Assembly (NCBI GenBank): GCA_001777665.1
Contig: MFEQ01000003.1
Span: forward strand, 11,258 to 75,257
Source: Candidatus Doudnabacteria bacterium RIFCSPHIGHO2_02_FULL_42_25
GTDB taxonomy: Bacteria; Patescibacteriota; Doudnabacteria; UBA920; O2-02-FULL-48-8
Direction of reading: 5' to 3'
Length of the DNA: 64,000 bases
The position numbers and the translations under genes are program-made. Below the pieces are notes generated by a model that saw nothing but the letters and a program-made list of their open reading frames with translations, was not told where the DNA came from and made no database searches. Shown here piece by piece: positions 1-51,471 of the stretch. Numbering within the stretch: position 1 is the first letter of the stretch; each line of letters opens with the position of its first letter.

Positions 1-195
1 ATGCCGAAGCACAAAGTCGAAGATGCCATGCAACGCAGCCTTCAGAACTCCATGCTTTATTTTTTCCCGATTATTTTGTTTGTTTCAATTCTTGCATTGC
101 CAGCCGGCTTGGCATTATATATAGTAGTAACTACTCTATTTAGTATCGGGCAACAGTATTACATTTTAAGGCAAGAAGCGAAGCAATCTCTATGA
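1..195 (+). CDS. yidC: membrane protein insertase YidC, C-terminal fragment (5' partial)
   Basis: Hydrophobic C-terminal TM segment ending in a QQYY-like tail typical of YidC. It is followed by jag, as in the conserved yidC-jag arrangement. Confidence 0.55.
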   Translation: MPKHKVEDAMQRSLQNSMLYFFPIILFVSILALPAGLALYIVVTTLFSIGQQYYILRQEAKQSL

Positions 196-680
196 ATGAA
201 ACTCTAAAAAAGATGGTATTGGACTTACTCAAACAGATGGGGTTTGAGGCAGAAGTCTATGAACGACAAGAAGAAGGGCGCACTGTTTTTAATGTCAAAA
301 CTCATGACGCGCAACTTTTGATTGGCAAACAAGGTGCGAATCTGGAAGCCCTGCAACATATGATTCGAATTTTGTTTCGCAAACAAACCCAAGATGACAG
401 GTTTCCATTTGCTATCGACATTGATGACTACAGGGATAAACGAGTGTTGTATCTGAAAGAGTTAGCCAGAAAAGCCGCTCATCATGTCAGACAAACTAGG
501 AAGCCAGTCAGCCTGGAACCCATGCCAGCCTATGAACGACGAGTCGTGCATAGCTATCTTTCGCTTTACAATGATATTGGTTCAGAAAGTGTCGGAGTTG
601 ATCCAAATCGAAAGTTAATCATCAAACCGAAAGCCAAAGAAAAAAATCCCGATGACTTCAACTTTATTGAGAATATGTAG
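192..680 (+). CDS. jag: Jag/KhpB RNA-binding protein (KH + R3H domains)
   Basis: N-terminal Jag_N-like segment and a C-terminal R3H-like region (VHSYLSLYNDIGSESVG). Overlaps the yidC stop by 4 nt. Confidence 0.7.
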   Translation: MNETLKKMVLDLLKQMGFEAEVYERQEEGRTVFNVKTHDAQLLIGKQGANLEALQHMIRILFRKQTQDDRFPFAIDIDDYRDKRVLYLKELARKAAHHVRQTRKPVSLEPMPAYERRVVHSYLSLYNDIGSESVGVDPNRKLIIKPKAKEKNPDDFNFIENM

Positions 681-719
681 CGCTCTGTCCATTCCGAGCA
701 AAGCGAGGAATCGCTCCTC

Positions 720-735
720 CGAGGGTGACCCTCGT
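720..735. repeat. REP-like palindrome cgagggtgaccctcgt (copy 1 of 3)
   Basis: An identical 16-nt palindromic core recurs at 47135-47150 and 47779-47794, where the two copies flank a Y1 transposase gene. Confidence 0.7.
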
Positions 736-875
736 AAGAGGGGTCCCTCCGCTCCTGCTTGACTTAGCCCTTACGAGGTCGGTCGGGATGACAGGACAAG
801 GTCACAAATTGTGACCTTGAATTGAATCAGTGTAAAATGTTTTGACAATTTTAGAAGATAGTTTTAAAATTAAAA

Positions 876-904
876 TAAGTCGGAAAGCCGACTTTTTATT
901 TTTA
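876..904 (+). terminator. rho-independent terminator-like hairpin (aagtcggaaagccgactttttattttt)
   Basis: 7-bp GC-containing stem followed by a T-run. It ends a roughly 200 nt structured intergenic segment. Confidence 0.5.
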
Positions 905-911
905 TACAATC

Positions 912-1427
912 ATGAAAAATAATTTATTAATTTCTGAGCGAATTGAAAGCAAAATTTATCTTATCCGTGGGAAAAAAGTAATGTTTGATGGTGATTTGGC
1001 CGAGCTTTATGGGGTAGAAACGAAAATGTTGAATCGTGCGGTGAGAAGAAACAGAGATCGTTTTCCTGTCGATTTTATGTTTCAATTAAACCAGAAGGAA
1101 ATCAAGATTTGGGAAAACTTGAGGTTCCAATTTGGCACCTCAAGTTTAGGTCATGGAGGTCGCAGATATCCACCAATGGTCTTTACAGAGCAAGGCATTG
1201 CAATGCTTTCAAGTGTCTTAAACAGCAAGGGAGCAATCCAAGTTAACATCCAAATCATGCGAACGTTTACAAAGCTACGTGAGATGCTGGCAACTAATAG
1301 AGAATTACGAGAAAAAATAGAAAAACTTGAACGCAAGTATGATCAGCGGTTCAAAATTGTCTTTAATGCGATTAGAAATTTGTTATCTACTGAAACCAAA
1401 CCAACGAAAGAGATTGGTTTTAAGTAG
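912..1427 (+). CDS. ORF6N (KilA-N-like) domain protein
   Basis: The N-terminal segment (IYLIRGKKVMFDGDLAELYGVETKMLNRAVRRNRDRFP...FQL) matches the ORF6N/antirepressor-like domain, followed by a coiled-coil tail. Confidence 0.6.
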   Translation: MKNNLLISERIESKIYLIRGKKVMFDGDLAELYGVETKMLNRAVRRNRDRFPVDFMFQLNQKEIKIWENLRFQFGTSSLGHGGRRYPPMVFTEQGIAMLSSVLNSKGAIQVNIQIMRTFTKLREMLATNRELREKIEKLERKYDQRFKIVFNAIRNLLSTETKPTKEIGFK

Positions 1428-19377: not shown

Positions 19378-19403
19378 GAAGAATTTGGTATAATGTACAT
19401 CAC

Positions 19404-19690
19404 GCCGCGGTAGCTCAGCGGTAGAGCGCAGCCCTAAATATCTTTGGGGCCAGAATCAGTAATGGTTCTTGAGAAAAATTGGGTGAATTCGGGGGAACCC
19501 CAGTCATGCTGGACAATCCCGAGCCAAGCCAGAAAGGGCAATGGTTTTCTGGAAGGTGTAGAGACTAGCAAGTGAGTCCCAACAATAATCTTGCAAACAG
19601 CGCCCAACTCCTTTAGTAAGGATGATGATATAGTCCACATAGCTTCGGAAGAGGCTGGCGTCGGGTGTTCGACTCACCCCCGCGGCACCA
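19404..19690 (+). tRNA. tRNA-Phe(GAA) interrupted by a group I intron after U33 (exons 19404-19435 and 19648-19690)
   Basis: Exons assemble to GCCGCGGTAGCTCAGCGGTAGAGCGCAGCCCU|GAAGAGGCUGGCGTCGGGTGTTCGACTCACCCCCGCGGCACCA. P1 (GCCCU/GGGGC) and P10 (GAAGA/UCUUU) pairings fix the splice sites. Confidence 0.75.
19436..19647 (+). ncRNA. group I (IC3-like) self-splicing intron in the tRNA-Phe anticodon loop
   Basis: Conserved blocks match the Azoarcus tRNA-Ile intron: GAAGGTGTAGAGACTAG, CGAGCCAAGC, GCAAAC. The 5' exon ends in U and the intron ends in G. Confidence 0.8.
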
Positions 19691-47013: not shown

Positions 47014-47047
47014 AGTAAAATCGAGTTAGCAATATAATAATATCCAC

Positions 47048-47122
47048 GCGCGTGTAGCTCAGCGGTAGAGCGATTGTCTTATACACAATTGGCCCCAGGT
47101 TCGAATCCTGGCACGCGCACCA
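47048..47122 (+). tRNA. tRNA-Ile(TAT)
   Basis: GCGCGTG/CACGCGC acceptor, discriminator A, CCA. Anticodon loop CTTATAC (UAU). T-arm CCAGGTTCGAATCCTGG. Confidence 0.8.
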
Positions 47123-47131
47123 GTGAAGTAA

Positions 47132-47794
47132 TACGAGGGTGACCCTCGTATTTTAGAATCCTTCGAAGTCGAAGGTTTTTTTAATTTCTTCATTTCGGTT
47201 CTGATGACTCATGACAAAGTCTTCATAGTGGGTTGTTGAGTTTTCAAACCAACTTAGTAGTATAGAACGATCGCAAATCGATTCAGGCGAGATACCTAAA
47301 ATTTCTTGAAAACTAGAGTATTCATATGTTTTGACATTAGAGGGGTTATTGTGAATATATGCTGAGAGGTATGAGGCATATTCACTGGTATCCACTAACT
47401 TGGCCTTAAATCTATCTTGAAATAAATTTCCAATACGAGAATATTTTTTATTTATATAGCATACATAGCTCGTGCATAACTTAAGAATTAGTTTATCAAT
47501 ATTTATCAAAGTATTTTGTTTGATAAGAAAATGGAAATGATTAGGCATGAGACAATATGCTAATATAGTGAATGTTCCTGGTGCAAATGGCTGAATTCTA
47601 GATTTACTTGGAGGCAATACTAACTTACCAAGAATAATTCTAAGGCGTTTTAGAAATTGAGTATAATCTTGATCATCAAAAAATATAAGTTGTTTATTAA
47701 CCCCACGATTGAAAATGTGATAATAATTACCAGCGCTAAATAGTTTATAGTCTCTGTATTGCATAAAATAAAGGGATACGAGGGTGACCCTCGT
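47132..47794 (-). mobile_element. REP - RAYT (IS200/IS605-type Y1 transposase) - REP unit
   Basis: Palindromes tacgagggtgaccctcgta at 47132-47150 and 47777-47794 bracket the transposase ORF. Confidence 0.7.
47153..47764 (-). CDS. REP-associated tyrosine transposase (IS200-like Y1 HUH transposase)
   Basis: HUH motif NHFHFLI. YHIFNRGVNKQLIFFDDQDY N-terminal region. Tyr-containing C-terminal helix (YVCYINKKYSRIGNLFQDRF). Confidence 0.75.
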   Translation of the reverse strand: MQYRDYKLFSAGNYYHIFNRGVNKQLIFFDDQDYTQFLKRLRIILGKLVLPPSKSRIQPFAPGTFTILAYCLMPNHFHFLIKQNTLINIDKLILKLCTSYVCYINKKYSRIGNLFQDRFKAKLVDTSEYASYLSAYIHNNPSNVKTYEYSSFQEILGISPESICDRSILLSWFENSTTHYEDFVMSHQNRNEEIKKTFDFEGF

Positions 47795-47797
47795 GGA

Positions 47798-49318
47798 TTA
47801 TTCGACTTTCGGCCGGTATTGAACTGCTTCGGCAAGGTGAGTGACTGTAATCGATTGAGCATCTTCTAAGTCAGCAATGGTTCGAGCGAGTTTCAAAACA
47901 CGATGGTATGACCGAGCAGAAAGATACATTTTTACTACAACAGCCTTCATGAATGCTTGTTCGGCTTCTCCTAGCTGGCAAAACTCTTTAATCTCTTTTA
48001 TCGTCATCTCCGAATTAGTTTTAAGACCTGGAAGATTTGAAAACCTCTTTGTTTGAATGTCCCGTGCTCGCTGAACACGTGATTGAACTTCCTCGGATGA
48101 TTCTCCACCAGCATCTGACGCTAATTTGTCATATTCAATCCGTCCTACTTCCACATGGAGATCAATTCGATCCATCATCGGACCCGAAATTTTCTTATGA
48201 TACTTCGCGATTTGTGATGGTGAACAAATACAAGGCTTAGTCGGATCAGAAAAATATCCGCAAGGACAAGGATTCTGTGCTGCGACCAAAGTAAACTGTG
48301 CAGGAAATTCTACGGTGGCAGCAGCCCTAGCCACAGTCACGACCCCGTCTTCCAAAGGCTGACGTAAATTTTCCAAAACTGATCGATTAAATTCTGGAAA
48401 CTCATCCATAAACAACACACCCCGGTGAGCCAGCGATATCTCTCCAGGTTTCGGATTAGAACCTCCTCCAACCAAAGCCACTGAAGAAGAGCTGTGATGA
48501 GGACTCCGAAAAGGTCTCATCGTGATCATAGTTTTGTTTAAATTGAGCAACCCAGCTACACTATAGATTTTTGTAATTTCTAAAACCTCATCGACTGTCG
48601 GTTTGGGTAGAATCGAGGGCAGCGCCTTGGCCAACAATGTCTTACCAGTCCCCGGAGGACCAGAAAGCAGAACATTGTGTCCACCCGAAGCGGCAATCTC
48701 CAAAGCGCGTTTAGCAGATTCCTGGCCTTTGATCAATTTCAGGTCAAAAATCTCTTTCGGGGTACTTAGAATCTCTTCCCAATCAATTGCTTGGATGGGT
48801 TTTATCTTTATCAAATTCTGTAAGTACCCGATTACTTCGTATAAATTTTTTATAGGAATGATCGTGATTCCAGAAACCAGGCTCGCCTCTCTGCTATTTT
48901 CTTTTGGTACAAAAACTTTTTTAAATCCTTGCTCTTTCGCTGACAGCAACATTGAAAGCACTCCTGAAACTGCTCTGACACTACCGTCCAGAGCCAACTC
49001 ACCAAGAAATATTTTATCTTTTGGTTCAAAAAATATTTGACCAGAATTCAGTAAAATTGAAAGTGCAATGGGTAAATCATAATGCGTCCCATTTTTGGGT
49101 AGATCGGCTGGTGCTAGGTTAATGGCAACATGAGACCTGGGGAAAATTGCATTGGAATTTTTAATCGCAGACTTTACGCGTTCTTTCGCTTCTTGGACTG
49201 CGGTATCTGGTAACCCGACAATTATCGTTTTCGGTAACCCTCCCGAAATATCAACCTCAACCTCTATCGGAGCTGCGTCTAATCCTACTAAAGCAGTAGC
49301 ATAAACTTTCGCTGGCAT
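47798..49318 (-). CDS. comM: YifB/ComM family Mg-chelatase-like AAA+ ATPase
   Basis: ChlI-like N-terminal domain, Walker A SGPPGTGKT, and a C-terminal Mg_chelatase_C region. Confidence 0.85.
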   Translation of the reverse strand: MPAKVYATALVGLDAAPIEVEVDISGGLPKTIIVGLPDTAVQEAKERVKSAIKNSNAIFPRSHVAINLAPADLPKNGTHYDLPIALSILLNSGQIFFEPKDKIFLGELALDGSVRAVSGVLSMLLSAKEQGFKKVFVPKENSREASLVSGITIIPIKNLYEVIGYLQNLIKIKPIQAIDWEEILSTPKEIFDLKLIKGQESAKRALEIAASGGHNVLLSGPPGTGKTLLAKALPSILPKPTVDEVLEITKIYSVAGLLNLNKTMITMRPFRSPHHSSSSVALVGGGSNPKPGEISLAHRGVLFMDEFPEFNRSVLENLRQPLEDGVVTVARAAATVEFPAQFTLVAAQNPCPCGYFSDPTKPCICSPSQIAKYHKKISGPMMDRIDLHVEVGRIEYDKLASDAGGESSEEVQSRVQRARDIQTKRFSNLPGLKTNSEMTIKEIKEFCQLGEAEQAFMKAVVVKMYLSARSYHRVLKLARTIADLEDAQSITVTHLAEAVQYRPKVE

Positions 49319-49367
49319 AAATTTATCTTATATAAAAGCCCCGCACTCCGACGAACAGGGCTTTCGC

Positions 49368-49598
49368 TTAGTTATTCTGTTTACTCATGAACCCCATAAC
49401 ATCTTCTAACGCTTTCGTAAACTCACCTACTTCGCTTTCGAAAACATTGAGATAGCTTTTCTTTCTCTCTTCCCCATTTAATTCTGATTGGGTAATTTTC
49501 AGAAATGGTTTGGCATTTTTAGCCGATTTCACATCGAAAAAATATGTTCGACGGCCGGCTGAAACTTTGGTAGAGAAAAGTGCTGGTGCAAATTCCAT
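49368..49598 (-). CDS. DUF3276/PUR-like small nucleic-acid-binding protein
   Basis: YFFDVKSAKNAKPFLKITQSE segment. Confidence 0.45.
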   Translation of the reverse strand: MEFAPALFSTKVSAGRRTYFFDVKSAKNAKPFLKITQSELNGEERKKSYLNVFESEVGEFTKALEDVMGFMSKQNN

Positions 49599-49603
49599 AT
49601 GTT

Positions 49604-49792
49604 TTATACTCTAATTACTGTTAACAATCCGTTGAATCTATCATTAACGATCAGTGGGACTCCAGACAGTCTAGCCACTTCTGTAACTATTGGTTGCAGT
49701 CGGCAGTTGTGGCTTACCTCATTAGTGCAGTGCGCACACAAACCCTTTAACTGACTAATGATGGTATATTTTTGTTGTTCAAATTCGCTCAT
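49604..49792 (-). CDS. hypothetical small protein downstream of lexA
   Basis: 62 aa, Cys/His-containing (CAHCTNEVSHNC). Overlaps the lexA stop region. Confidence 0.3.
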   Translation of the reverse strand: MSEFEQQKYTIISQLKGLCAHCTNEVSHNCRLQPIVTEVARLSGVPLIVNDRFNGLLTVIRV

Positions 49793-49793
49793 A

Positions 49794-50408
49794 TTACTCT
49801 AGCCTTCTAATGACTCCGATTACTTTCCCCTGAATCGACCATTCATGTTCAGGGTATATATTAGGATATTCCTTATTTTCTGCTTTTAGATAAAACTTTC
49901 CTTCTTTCTTTACCAGTCGTTTAACTGTAGCTTCGTCTTCGAGAAGTGCGACGACGATGTCATTGATGTCTGCAATTTTTTGTTGTTTGACCAAAACCAA
50001 ATCTCCATTCAAAATTCCAGCATCCTTCATACTCATTCCCTGAACTTTGAGTAAGAACACATCTTTTCGTCCTCGGACTAAACTTACTGGGAGATTTAAC
50101 CAATCCTCTATCTGTTCTTCGGCTAGCATCGGCAGTCCAGCTGTGATGCGTCCCAACACCGGAAGACTAACCATCCCAAGTCCGATGGGGTCCCCTTCTG
50201 GATTGAGAACTTCTATTCCTCGAGCTTTACTCGATCTGCGGATATAACCCTTATCTTCCAAAACCCGAAGTAATTTTGCCACTGCATTTTTTGATTTGAG
50301 TTTGAGGCTCCTGGCCATTTCTGAAAAAGAGGGAGGTAAGCCTTTGTCTTGAATTTCATGCTGAAGTAGTTCTAATAATTGTTTTTGCTTAGGAGTAAGT
50401 TCATTCAT
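49794..50408 (-). CDS. lexA: LexA repressor
   Basis: N-terminal wHTH. Ser (VQGMSMKDAGI) and Lys (ATVKRL) catalytic dyad context. Confidence 0.85.
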   Translation of the reverse strand: MNELTPKQKQLLELLQHEIQDKGLPPSFSEMARSLKLKSKNAVAKLLRVLEDKGYIRRSSKARGIEVLNPEGDPIGLGMVSLPVLGRITAGLPMLAEEQIEDWLNLPVSLVRGRKDVFLLKVQGMSMKDAGILNGDLVLVKQQKIADINDIVVALLEDEATVKRLVKKEGKFYLKAENKEYPNIYPEHEWSIQGKVIGVIRRLE

Positions 50409-50556
50409 AGTATTCCGGAGGATTTCGAAGGAATCAGTAGACTCGGGGCGGCTTCCTCACCCACCAACTCCTTCGTTTTTGTCATCCGTATAAGTAATGG
50501 TATACGATCGTTCACCTATTGTCAAGATAGGGAATTCTTTAGAAAAATTCAAAGGA

Positions 50557-50586
50557 TTGATTAGTTATTCACAGTCGAGCTATAAT
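50557..50586 (+). promoter_or_regulatory. promoter TTGATT-18-TATAAT upstream of galU
   Basis: -10 ends 9 nt before ggag and ATG 50596. Confidence 0.5.
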
Positions 50587-50595
50587 ATTGGAGTT

Positions 50596-51471
50596 ATGAT
50601 AAACGCTAAAAAAGTACGTAAGGCGGTTATTCCTGCCGCTGGGTTTGGAACTAGATTTCTTCCAGCCACTAAGGCCCAACCCAAAGAAATGTTACCGATT
50701 GTTGATAAACCGGTTATTCAATATGTAGTAGAGCAAGCGGTAGCAGCTGGAATTGAACAAATTGTGATCGTCACAGGTTGGCATAAACGAGCAATCGAGG
50801 ATCACTTCGATCGTCATTTTGAATTGGAAGCGAGATTAGAAAAAGACGGGAAAATTGAACAATTGCAATCAATAAAAAAGATTTCCGATTTAGCTGATTT
50901 TGTTTATGTTAGGCAAAAAGAAGCGTTGGGGAATGGCCATGCAGTACTCATGGCAAAAGATATAATTGGTAACGAACCTTTCGTTGTCATGTGGGGTGAT
51001 GAATTTTTTGAGGCAGATCCACCATCTTTGAAGCAATTAATTTCAGTTTATGAACAAACTGGTTCGCCAGTCATAGCTGGAATAAAAGTTGATAAAGCTG
51101 ACGTATCACGTTATGGAATCGGAAAAGTTACGAATATAAAAGACAATTTATTCAAGCTGCATGAAATAGTCGAAAAACCGACCCCGGAAGAAGCCCCTTC
51201 TAACTTGGCAGTTCATGGCAATTATCTATTTACTCCGGATATTTTTGATATGCTCAAAGATTTAAAACCATCTAAGAGTGGAGAGATTTGGCAAGTTGAT
51301 GCAATTAATAAACTTGCAGCACAAAAAGATGTTCATGTTCTGGAGTTAAAAAATTCCCACTACTATGATTGCGGGAATAAATTAGGATACCTCAAAGCTG
51401 TCGTAGAGTTTGGACTCAAACACGATGATCTTCGGGATGAATTTGCCGAATACCTCAGAAATATTGTATAA
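50596..51471 (+). CDS. galU: UTP--glucose-1-phosphate uridylyltransferase
   Basis: AVIPAAGFGTRFLPATKAQPKEMLPIVDKPVIQY signature. ATG preceded by a ggag SD. Confidence 0.85.
   Translation: MINAKKVRKAVIPAAGFGTRFLPATKAQPKEMLPIVDKPVIQYVVEQAVAAGIEQIVIVTGWHKRAIEDHFDRHFELEARLEKDGKIEQLQSIKKISDLADFVYVRQKEALGNGHAVLMAKDIIGNEPFVVMWGDEFFEADPPSLKQLISVYEQTGSPVIAGIKVDKADVSRYGIGKVTNIKDNLFKLHEIVEKPTPEEAPSNLAVHGNYLFTPDIFDMLKDLKPSKSGEIWQVDAINKLAAQKDVHVLELKNSHYYDCGNKLGYLKAVVEFGLKHDDLRDEFAEYLRNIV

Follow-up and report, generated by a model that had tools for sequence, protein, structure and literature searches.

A probable REPtron-like unit in Candidatus Doudnabacteria: a Y1 HUH enzyme gene between copies of a short palindrome

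The genome of Candidatus Doudnabacteria bacterium RIFCSPHIGHO2_02_FULL_42_25 encodes a small Y1 HUH tyrosine nuclease/transposase whose gene stands between two copies of a short palindrome (Table 1). The DNA analysed, here called the window, is a stretch of 64,000 nucleotides from contig MFEQ01000003.1. Gene and palindromes probably form a unit resembling the REPtrons, in which a REP-associated tyrosine transposase (RAYT, also called TnpA-REP) is accompanied by repetitive extragenic palindromes (REPs): a single-copy, vertically retained class 2 Y1 enzyme lies between its cognate palindromes, and solo copies of the palindrome stand elsewhere. The evidence comes from the anatomy of the unit; the conservation of catalytic residues; the predicted fold; the pairing of gene and hairpin throughout the protein family; and the solo copies.

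The Y1 enzyme and its palindrome

The open reading frame (ORF), which contains CLMPNHFHFLIKQ, matches the Pfam model Y1_Tnp (PF01797) with 40 bits against a cutoff of 23. No other Pfam model was matched at E <= 0.1, and no helix-turn-helix (HTH) domain was found by Pfam. H76-F77-H78 form the HUH motif, AYIHNNP contains the proposed nucleophile, Y136, and a FQDRFKAK motif is present. Across 37 aligned homologs, H76, H78, Q116 and D117 (in FQDxFKAK), and Y136 (in AYIHNNP) are invariant. All 37 match the NCBIfam model NF047646 (REP_Tyr_transpos), each below its threshold; at E <= 0.01, no other NCBIfam transposase model, IS200 included, was matched among them. A database search returned at least 1,773 relatives at E < 1e-5, about 200 residues long. 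The few that are named are labelled Doudnabacteria, "transposase," or "RayT." Closed CPR genomes also have homologs, among them an 868-kb contig (P0033) and an 858-kb contig (L186).

The AlphaFold model (pLDDT 89.8) predicts a C-terminal extension of about 60 residues, folded as short helices. In a Foldseek comparison the top match is 4ER8, the Escherichia coli TnpA-REP protein bound to a REP hairpin (E 3.6e-6). The ISDra2, IS608, and IS200 transposases rank below it (ISDra2 and IS608 TnpA at E 1e-4 to 1e-3). Profile alignment with E. coli RayT (hhalign) places HFH onto HMH, LFQDRF onto IWQPRF, and Y136 onto Y115. Matches in the Protein Data Bank (PDB) came from fold comparison alone; sequence and profile searches of the PDB returned nothing relevant. 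Sequence and predicted fold agree on an intact Y1 HUH enzyme. Its Y motif, YIHNNP, is conserved across the family and is of the Y---NP type that defines class 2 of TnpA-Y1, the TnpA-REP side, rather than the Y---Q type that defines the IS200 class (Quentin et al. 2018, PMC6006769 Table 1).

An earlier note on this DNA, drawn from the letters alone, had recognized the HUH motif and the general layout of a Y1 transposase, and had preferred a REP-RAYT-REP arrangement to an IS200 element. The Pfam score and the two motif histidines bear out the former. The latter is supported by the Y---NP signature, by the uniform match of the homologs to REP_Tyr_transpos and of none to IS200, and by 4ER8 as top structure, though the variant is atypical. 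Of the features that the note had named for checking, the catalytic tyrosine is present and the NP that follows it is shared, whereas the other motifs of canonical RAYTs, namely a conserved N-terminal Thr and NP(L/V)(R/K)xG after the Tyr (Nunvar 2010, PMC2817692), are absent. The N-terminus reads instead YH(I/V)(F/Y)NRG, and the tyrosine is followed as YIHNNPxxPLxY.

Both gene-flanking copies of the palindrome read TACGAGGGTGACCCTCGT on the plus strand (47132-47149 and 47777-47794) and ACGAGGGTCACCCTCGTAT (19 nt) on the gene strand. Each is predicted to fold, when single-stranded, into a stem of 7-10 bp with a 3-nt loop (-6.8 to -9.5 kcal/mol). The 15-nt core, CGAGGGTGACCCTCG, has exact matches at 720-734, 47134-47148, and 47779-47793 of the window, against a chance expectation of 0.03; the observed count was reached in none of 100 shuffles. 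With the adjoining parts of the same scaffold added, the sequence reaches 83.6 kb. It contains a single Y1 gene, and the palindrome recurs exactly once more, 704 bp beyond the end of the window and 2 nt before tRNA-Val(GAC), which makes four copies. All four have one polarity. The sites have only the palindrome of about 17 nt in common, their flanks being unrelated, and an unbiased scan of the 83.6 kb for repeated perfect hairpins found this family to be the most abundant.

The solo copy within the window lies in a 231-nt spacer (681-911) that follows a jag-like gene; positions 680-835 fold far more strongly than shuffled sequence (z = -4.65). The degenerate hairpin beside it, GAGGGGTCCCTC, resembles the REP of a related genome, AGAGGGGCACCCTCT (locus L204), and may be a decayed doublet partner. 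An Rfam search of the whole window gave no match at any REP site or within the 680-835 spacer, and a scan of viral contigs for the palindrome returned no matches.

The palindromes thus stand on both sides of the ORF, beside tRNA-Ile(UAU), and again in the hairpin-dense spacer near position 720, all as the earlier note had described. The note had also reckoned with restriction of the palindrome to those three sites; the fourth scaffold copy, together with copies and inverted doublets in a second genome (below), shows a wider distribution. Its suggestion that the REP family is dispersed through the genome holds insofar as solo copies exist, although on a small scale only: two in 83.6 kb.

Table 1. 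Positions of the Y1 gene, the palindromes, and the adjacent genes in the window
Feature	Position	Strand	Sequence	Remarks
Y1 HUH tyrosine nuclease/transposase gene, RAYT (TnpA-REP) class	47153..47764	-		203 aa
REP copy 5' of Y1 start	47777..47794		TACGAGGGTGACCCTCGT	In the 33-nt gap between yifB stop and Y1 ATG, 13 nt before the start
REP copy 3' of Y1 stop	47132..47150		TACGAGGGTGACCCTCGTA	2 nt past the stop codon, 9 nt past tRNA-Ile
Solo REP copy	719..735		CCGAGGGTGACCCTCGT	Polarity as flanking copies; jag-ORF6N spacer; ~2.5 kb from dnaA
Degenerate REP-like hairpin	738..749		GAGGGGTCCCTC	3 nt beyond the solo copy; GAGGG/CCCTC stem kept
REP palindrome, form for copy counting			ACGAGGGTSACCCTCGT	
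yifB/comM-type Mg-chelatase-like AAA ATPase gene	47798..49318	-		Directly upstream of Y1, co-directional
tRNA-Ile(UAU)	47048..47122	+		Neighbour, outside the element

Pairing, spread, and inheritance across the family

A metagenome scan yielded 80 loci with homologs at 33-52% identity, 70 of them with usable flanks. The 150 nt upstream and the 150 nt downstream of each gene were compared for shared words, and 231 other ORFs from the same loci served as controls. Flanks shared a word of at least 15 nt at 48 of the 70 Y1 loci versus 2 of the 231 control ORFs; for words of at least 11 nt, the counts were 56 of 70 and 15 of 231. The shared words are hairpins, with stems that are specific to the locus yet self-complementary (for example, CAAAGGTAACCTTTG, CCTGCAGGGCCAGGCCCTGCAGG, and TGTACACCTGAGAGGTGTACA). 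Pairing with its own hairpin is therefore a family-wide property of these Y1 genes.

The hairpins may stand alone or be grouped as doublets or triplets, and both relative orientations are found. The flanking copies are direct at about 28 of the 48 loci and inverted at 14. Stems measure 5-20 bp; loops are 1-5 nt, and longer now and then. Hairpin feet among the relatives begin with TACAAGG, GTCAAAGG, and similar sequences. The RGGG/CCCY top of the stem is kept in the closest relatives, and in a relative whose protein is 62% identical both sides of the stem have changed (AGAGGG...CCCTCT versus CGAGGG...CCCTCG here). Extra copies, often doublets, distant from the gene are found at eleven or more loci, namely L121, L124, L131, L134, L135, L139, L142, L152, L179, L187, and L210. 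A second homolog lies within 20 kb at only 1 of the 80 loci; there, each of the two paralogs (45% identical) is accompanied by a hairpin of its own.

At locus L133, the unit repeated on both sides of the gene comprises the hairpin together with an extended -10-like sequence, GTGGTATAAT; at L125 a similar sequence lies upstream of the gene. These sequences suggest that some REPs of the family carry an outward or inward promoter.

The palindrome itself extends to a second genome. A scan of genome collections for the 16-mer returned at least 116 stretches, mostly single chance matches in high-GC genomes. Among the matches listed, Paceibacterota SMAG_U8010, a genome of the candidate phyla radiation (CPR) with a GC content of 50%, holds the identical palindrome, TACGAGGGTSACCCTCGTA, in 7 copies on 4 contigs, and these include three inverted doublets. 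One doublet (L013 1807-1847) lies in frame within an 875-residue class I aminoacyl-tRNA synthetase ORF, where it separates the catalytic and anticodon-binding domains. REPs are known to insert in frame into genes. A tblastn search with the Y1 protein against the SMAG_U8010 stretches found no homolog within these 8-kb pieces. (A histidine-phosphatase domain, too, interrupts this synthetase ORF, at residues 221-386.)

The exact Y1 protein was read on 24 contigs, and 45 blocks of the assembly collection, mostly aquifer metagenomes, have it in their index. Three places are listed: Candidatus Doudnabacteria RIFCSPLOWO2_02_FULL_42_9 (GCA_001777545.1); GCA_001777775.1; and a 107-kb metagenome scaffold. 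The other 21 are collapsed as similar. Neighbouring genes are alike at all three, two of which are separate NCBI assemblies. In two further Doudnabacteria contigs, yifB again adjoins a Y1 gene whose product is 62% identical, with REPs of its own. Persistence of both the linkage and the gene's own REPs at this distance argues for long-term vertical retention. As a general trait of the family, adjacency to yifB was rejected: yifB is nearby at 2 of the 80 distant loci, and the association is local to some Doudnabacteria.

Known systems and rival explanations

Comparison with the REPtrons of E. coli (rayT), Pseudomonas, and Stenotrophomonas reveals these likenesses: a Y1 fold with HUH, catalytic Tyr, and the Y---NP signature; a single gene copy (in the 83.6 kb), bracketed by its own short palindrome; solo and inverted-doublet palindromes elsewhere; protein and hairpin that change together between genomes, and paralogs with separate hairpins; and, in a related genome, REP insertion in frame within a gene. 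Low copy number per genome and low identity between copies characterize class 2 TnpA-Y1 (PMC6006769); what was observed here is one copy in 83.6 kb and, at the only locus with two, paralogs of 45% identity.

Several observations weigh against the REPtron reading or set the unit apart from known REPtrons. In canonical REPtrons (Nunvar 2010; Ton-Hoang; Corneloup), the RAYT gene is described as lying between inverted REPs with GT[AG]G at the hairpin foot, and many gene-free copies of the palindrome are dispersed genome-wide. Here the two flanking copies are direct (the central G is on the plus strand in both), and there is no GT[AG]G tetranucleotide at the foot: on the gene strand, the 5' feet read CCAC, ATAC, and CTTAC before GAGGG. 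The hairpin is a compact, perfect stem, and four copies, a low number, are documented in the 83.6 kb. The protein has FQ in place of WQ/WE, and its NF047646 score is 35 bits against an equivalog cutoff of 80. The unit, at about 663 bp, is the size of an IS200 element; four of the closest relatives detected (L200-L203; YifB 77-88% identical) do not have it at the corresponding locus; and family members in other Doudnabacteria occupy unrelated gene contexts. The host, too, differs from those of known REPtrons in being a CPR bacterium with a small genome. Because of the missing GT[AG]G foot, the perfect short stem, the direct flanks, FQ, the absent Nunvar motifs, and the score below cutoff, the Doudnabacteria system is best regarded as a variant of the REP/RAYT kind that falls outside the canonical RAYT groups.

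Judged by motifs rather than phylogeny, the family is nearest to subclass 2.1 of class 2, and this too is atypical: subclass 2.1 is reported to lack REP-like hairpins and to have a C-terminal HTH (Bac_DnaA_C, HTH_23, or HTH_28; PMC6006769). The subclass corresponds to Bertels group 1 and to the TIRYTs of Di Nocera 2013 (PMC3733652; PMC6006769). Its motifs, NH[YF]H, FQ, and Y[IV]H.NP, are the closest set in Table 1 of PMC6006769. NHFH and FQ agree, whereas YIHNNP departs from Y[IV]HLNP. Both groups of protein are longer than IS200 TnpA, with a C-terminal extension. The flanking repeats of TIRtrons likewise form families of low to moderate copy number, some of them self-complementary and in dimers, and the half-site AGGGTGAC agrees with 7 of 8 positions of the terminal inverted repeat (TIR) consensus GGGGWSAS, which is a lead and not a test. 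Unlike TIRYT systems, the Doudnabacteria unit has hairpins, no C-terminal HTH by Pfam, and short hairpins instead of long TIRs.

The main rival explanation is an autonomous IS200-like insertion sequence (IS), in which the same-strand hairpins would be left and right ends and the 663-bp unit would move via a single-stranded circle. The IS200/IS605 elements (IS200, IS608, ISDra2; subclass 1.1) have the same fold, same-polarity bordering hairpins, and a unit of about 0.66 kb. Several near-identical whole elements per genome are usual for them; in the 83.6 kb there are none. Such hairpin geometry, shared by 28 of the 48 family loci, does not by itself separate IS200/IS605 from RAYT. The lack of the unit at the syntenic locus in four close relatives, the varied contexts of homologs, and a position adjoining both a tRNA gene and a synteny breakpoint would also suit such an element. 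The protein argues otherwise: Y---NP replaces the Y[IV]ENQ-type Y---Q, no IS200 NCBIfam model is matched, and 203 residues with a C-terminal extension contrast with a core-only IS200 TnpA of about 150 (PMC6006769). So does its genomic behaviour. The 83.6 kb contain the gene once, with no tnpB partner, while the hairpin also stands alone; the exact protein, at every listed place, has kept the same neighbours; the single nearby second homolog is a divergent paralog with a different hairpin; and linkage to yifB lasts down to 62% protein identity. Absence from four relatives indicates gain or loss over time. The unit has been gained, lost, or moved over evolutionary time; nothing in the sequence analysed indicates IS-like multiplication. 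An IS200-like element is, on balance, unlikely.

Two further explanations were weighed. Duplex operators for a dimeric regulator, possibly the C-terminal helices of Y1 itself, would also show dyad symmetry, and would control yifB/Y1 and a few other genes with no cleavage. One copy does lie directly between yifB and the Y1 start, the repeated unit of some homologs (L133) includes a promoter-like TGGTATAAT, and subclass 2.1 relatives have C-terminal HTH domains (PMC6006769). Pfam detects no such domain here, however, and the HUH and Tyr catalytic residues are invariant. Stems of 5-20 bp and loops of 1-5 nt or longer among homologs fit a folded hairpin better than an operator of fixed spacing, and copies also stand downstream of genes, in tandem inverted doublets, and in frame in a coding gene. 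This explanation is quite improbable. Less credible still is chance resemblance among ordinary intrinsic terminators or RNA-stability elements, their association with Y1 being coincidental. It would draw on the 47132 copy, which follows tRNA-Ile and has TTTT behind it, and on the REPs elsewhere that serve as terminators or mRNA stabilizers (PMC8266576). Four identical 16-17-mers were found where 0.03 were expected; the T-tract is missing in three of the four copies, none of which was called by a terminator scan; flank-sharing is strongly enriched at Y1 genes relative to control ORFs; and the same palindrome recurs in a genome of different GC content. As the origin of the hairpins, terminators are effectively refuted; a secondary terminator role is possible.

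A broader proposal would place the unit in a CPR-wide, undescribed subclass of class 2 Y1 enzymes, each with a co-evolved, compact hairpin free of a GTAG foot, and would give the enzyme in Doudnabacteria a role beyond the spread of REPs, through a functional tie to its conserved upstream partner yifB/comM and through local rearrangements. The nearest described relatives of that CPR-wide family, subclass 2.1, are reported to be REP-less (PMC6006769). The hint cited for the rearrangements is an inversion of the lexA-to-yifB segment, at one breakpoint of which the distal REP exactly lies. Taken jointly, these elements make an improbable proposal.

For the REPtron-like unit itself, a mechanism can be modelled on E. 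coli TnpA-REP and IS608 (PMC8266576); binding, cleavage chemistry, strand choice, and present-day activity would all follow by analogy. When the palindrome becomes single-stranded, for example in the lagging-strand template, it would fold into its 7-10-bp, 3-nt-loop hairpin and be bound by the Y1 enzyme, with the H76/H78 pair presumably holding a divalent metal. Y136 would then attack a phosphodiester beside the hairpin to form a 5'-phosphotyrosine link, and the free 3'-OH could rejoin at another copy. Hairpins might thereby be copied or moved, possibly with rearrangement of intervening DNA. Cutting and rejoining beside the hairpin would allow spread at low copy number.

Genomic setting and significance

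In natural transformation, YifB/ComM serves as a helicase for the recombination of single-stranded DNA. In the four relatives without the unit, the gene order is ROK, tRNA-Ile, lexA, a 60-residue ORF, DUF3276, yifB, and NTP-transferase, all co-directional (ROK is missing from one of them, and the sequence of another stops short upstream of lexA). Relative to these, the block of lexA, a 62-residue ORF, DUF3276, and yifB, together with Y1, is inverted in the window (47123-50545). One breakpoint coincides with the distal REP beside tRNA-Ile; the other is just upstream of the -35 box of the lexA promoter. Y1 and its REPs sit at the tRNA-Ile side of the inverted block. Locus L205, in which yifB and then Y1 face ddl and tRNA-Ile, appears to be inverted likewise. 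Simple REP-by-REP recombination is unsupported as the cause, because no REP was found at the second breakpoint (50,500-50,596).

In some relatives, a small 23S_rRNA_IVP gene (bAvd-like four-helix bundle) lies either upstream or downstream of yifB (L200 2854-3246; L201 5557-5931; L205 758-1141), so the flanks of yifB seem to be a variable spot in Doudnabacteria. The sole terminator-like site called near tRNA-Ile, at 47160-47185, consists of CCTTCGAAGTCGAAGG followed by T7. It is neither a REP nor an element of its own: it reads antisense to the conserved FDFE codons at the C-terminal end of the Y1 ORF (TFDFEG). The one stretch may double as coding sequence and tRNA-Ile terminator.

Other observations concern the wider sequence. 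The spacer that holds the solo REP also contains a strong 10-bp hairpin at 797-819, CAAGGTCACAAATTGTGACCTTG, unique in the 83.6 kb; its stem, AAGGTC...GACCTT, resembles the REPs of distant family members (L141, L179). Window positions 1-912, taken together with L206 6881-10489, display a classical origin cluster, with dnaN/dnaA on one side and rnpA-yidD-yidC-jag on the other. All 12 tRNA genes of the window and all four REP copies have plus-strand polarity in common, and the REP copies lie on what is presumably the leading-strand side of oriC. Further short palindromes recur two or three times: CCCGGACTTGATCCGGG, CCGAAGCTTTAGCGAAGG, and hairpins with the stems CTGCCTG and CCCCGCT (6404, 30602, 45137; 1577, 61831; 15924, 46988; 18272, 33854). 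They may represent shared terminators or additional REP-like families of low copy number; the 83.6 kb contain no Y1 gene cognate to them. Finally, Rfam reports a group I intron (72 bits) at 19426-19657, and the 28 nt directly before it (19401-19428) resemble the 5' half of tRNA-Ile (86% identical to 47045-47072). Positions 19401-19657 are probably an intron-containing tRNA gene missed by ARAGORN.

Work on REPs and RAYTs has been almost confined to Proteobacteria and a few other phyla. A full-text literature search found no paper linking RAYTs or REPtrons with CPR/Patescibacteria, and no published description was found of REPs arranged with a domesticated transposase in this lineage and protein subgroup. 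A streamlined host, with a genome of probably about 1 Mb, still keeps a REP/RAYT-like system. Such CPR genes are annotated as "transposase" or "hypothetical," and should not be counted as active insertion sequences. The relatives, at least 1,773 of them and mostly with a locus-specific hairpin, constitute a natural dataset for studying the recognition of a perfect hairpin by a Y1 enzyme in the absence of a GTAG guide. This Y1 family may also be an intermediate that clarifies the relationship of REPtrons to IS200-like elements and to subclass 2.1, which is supposedly REP-less.

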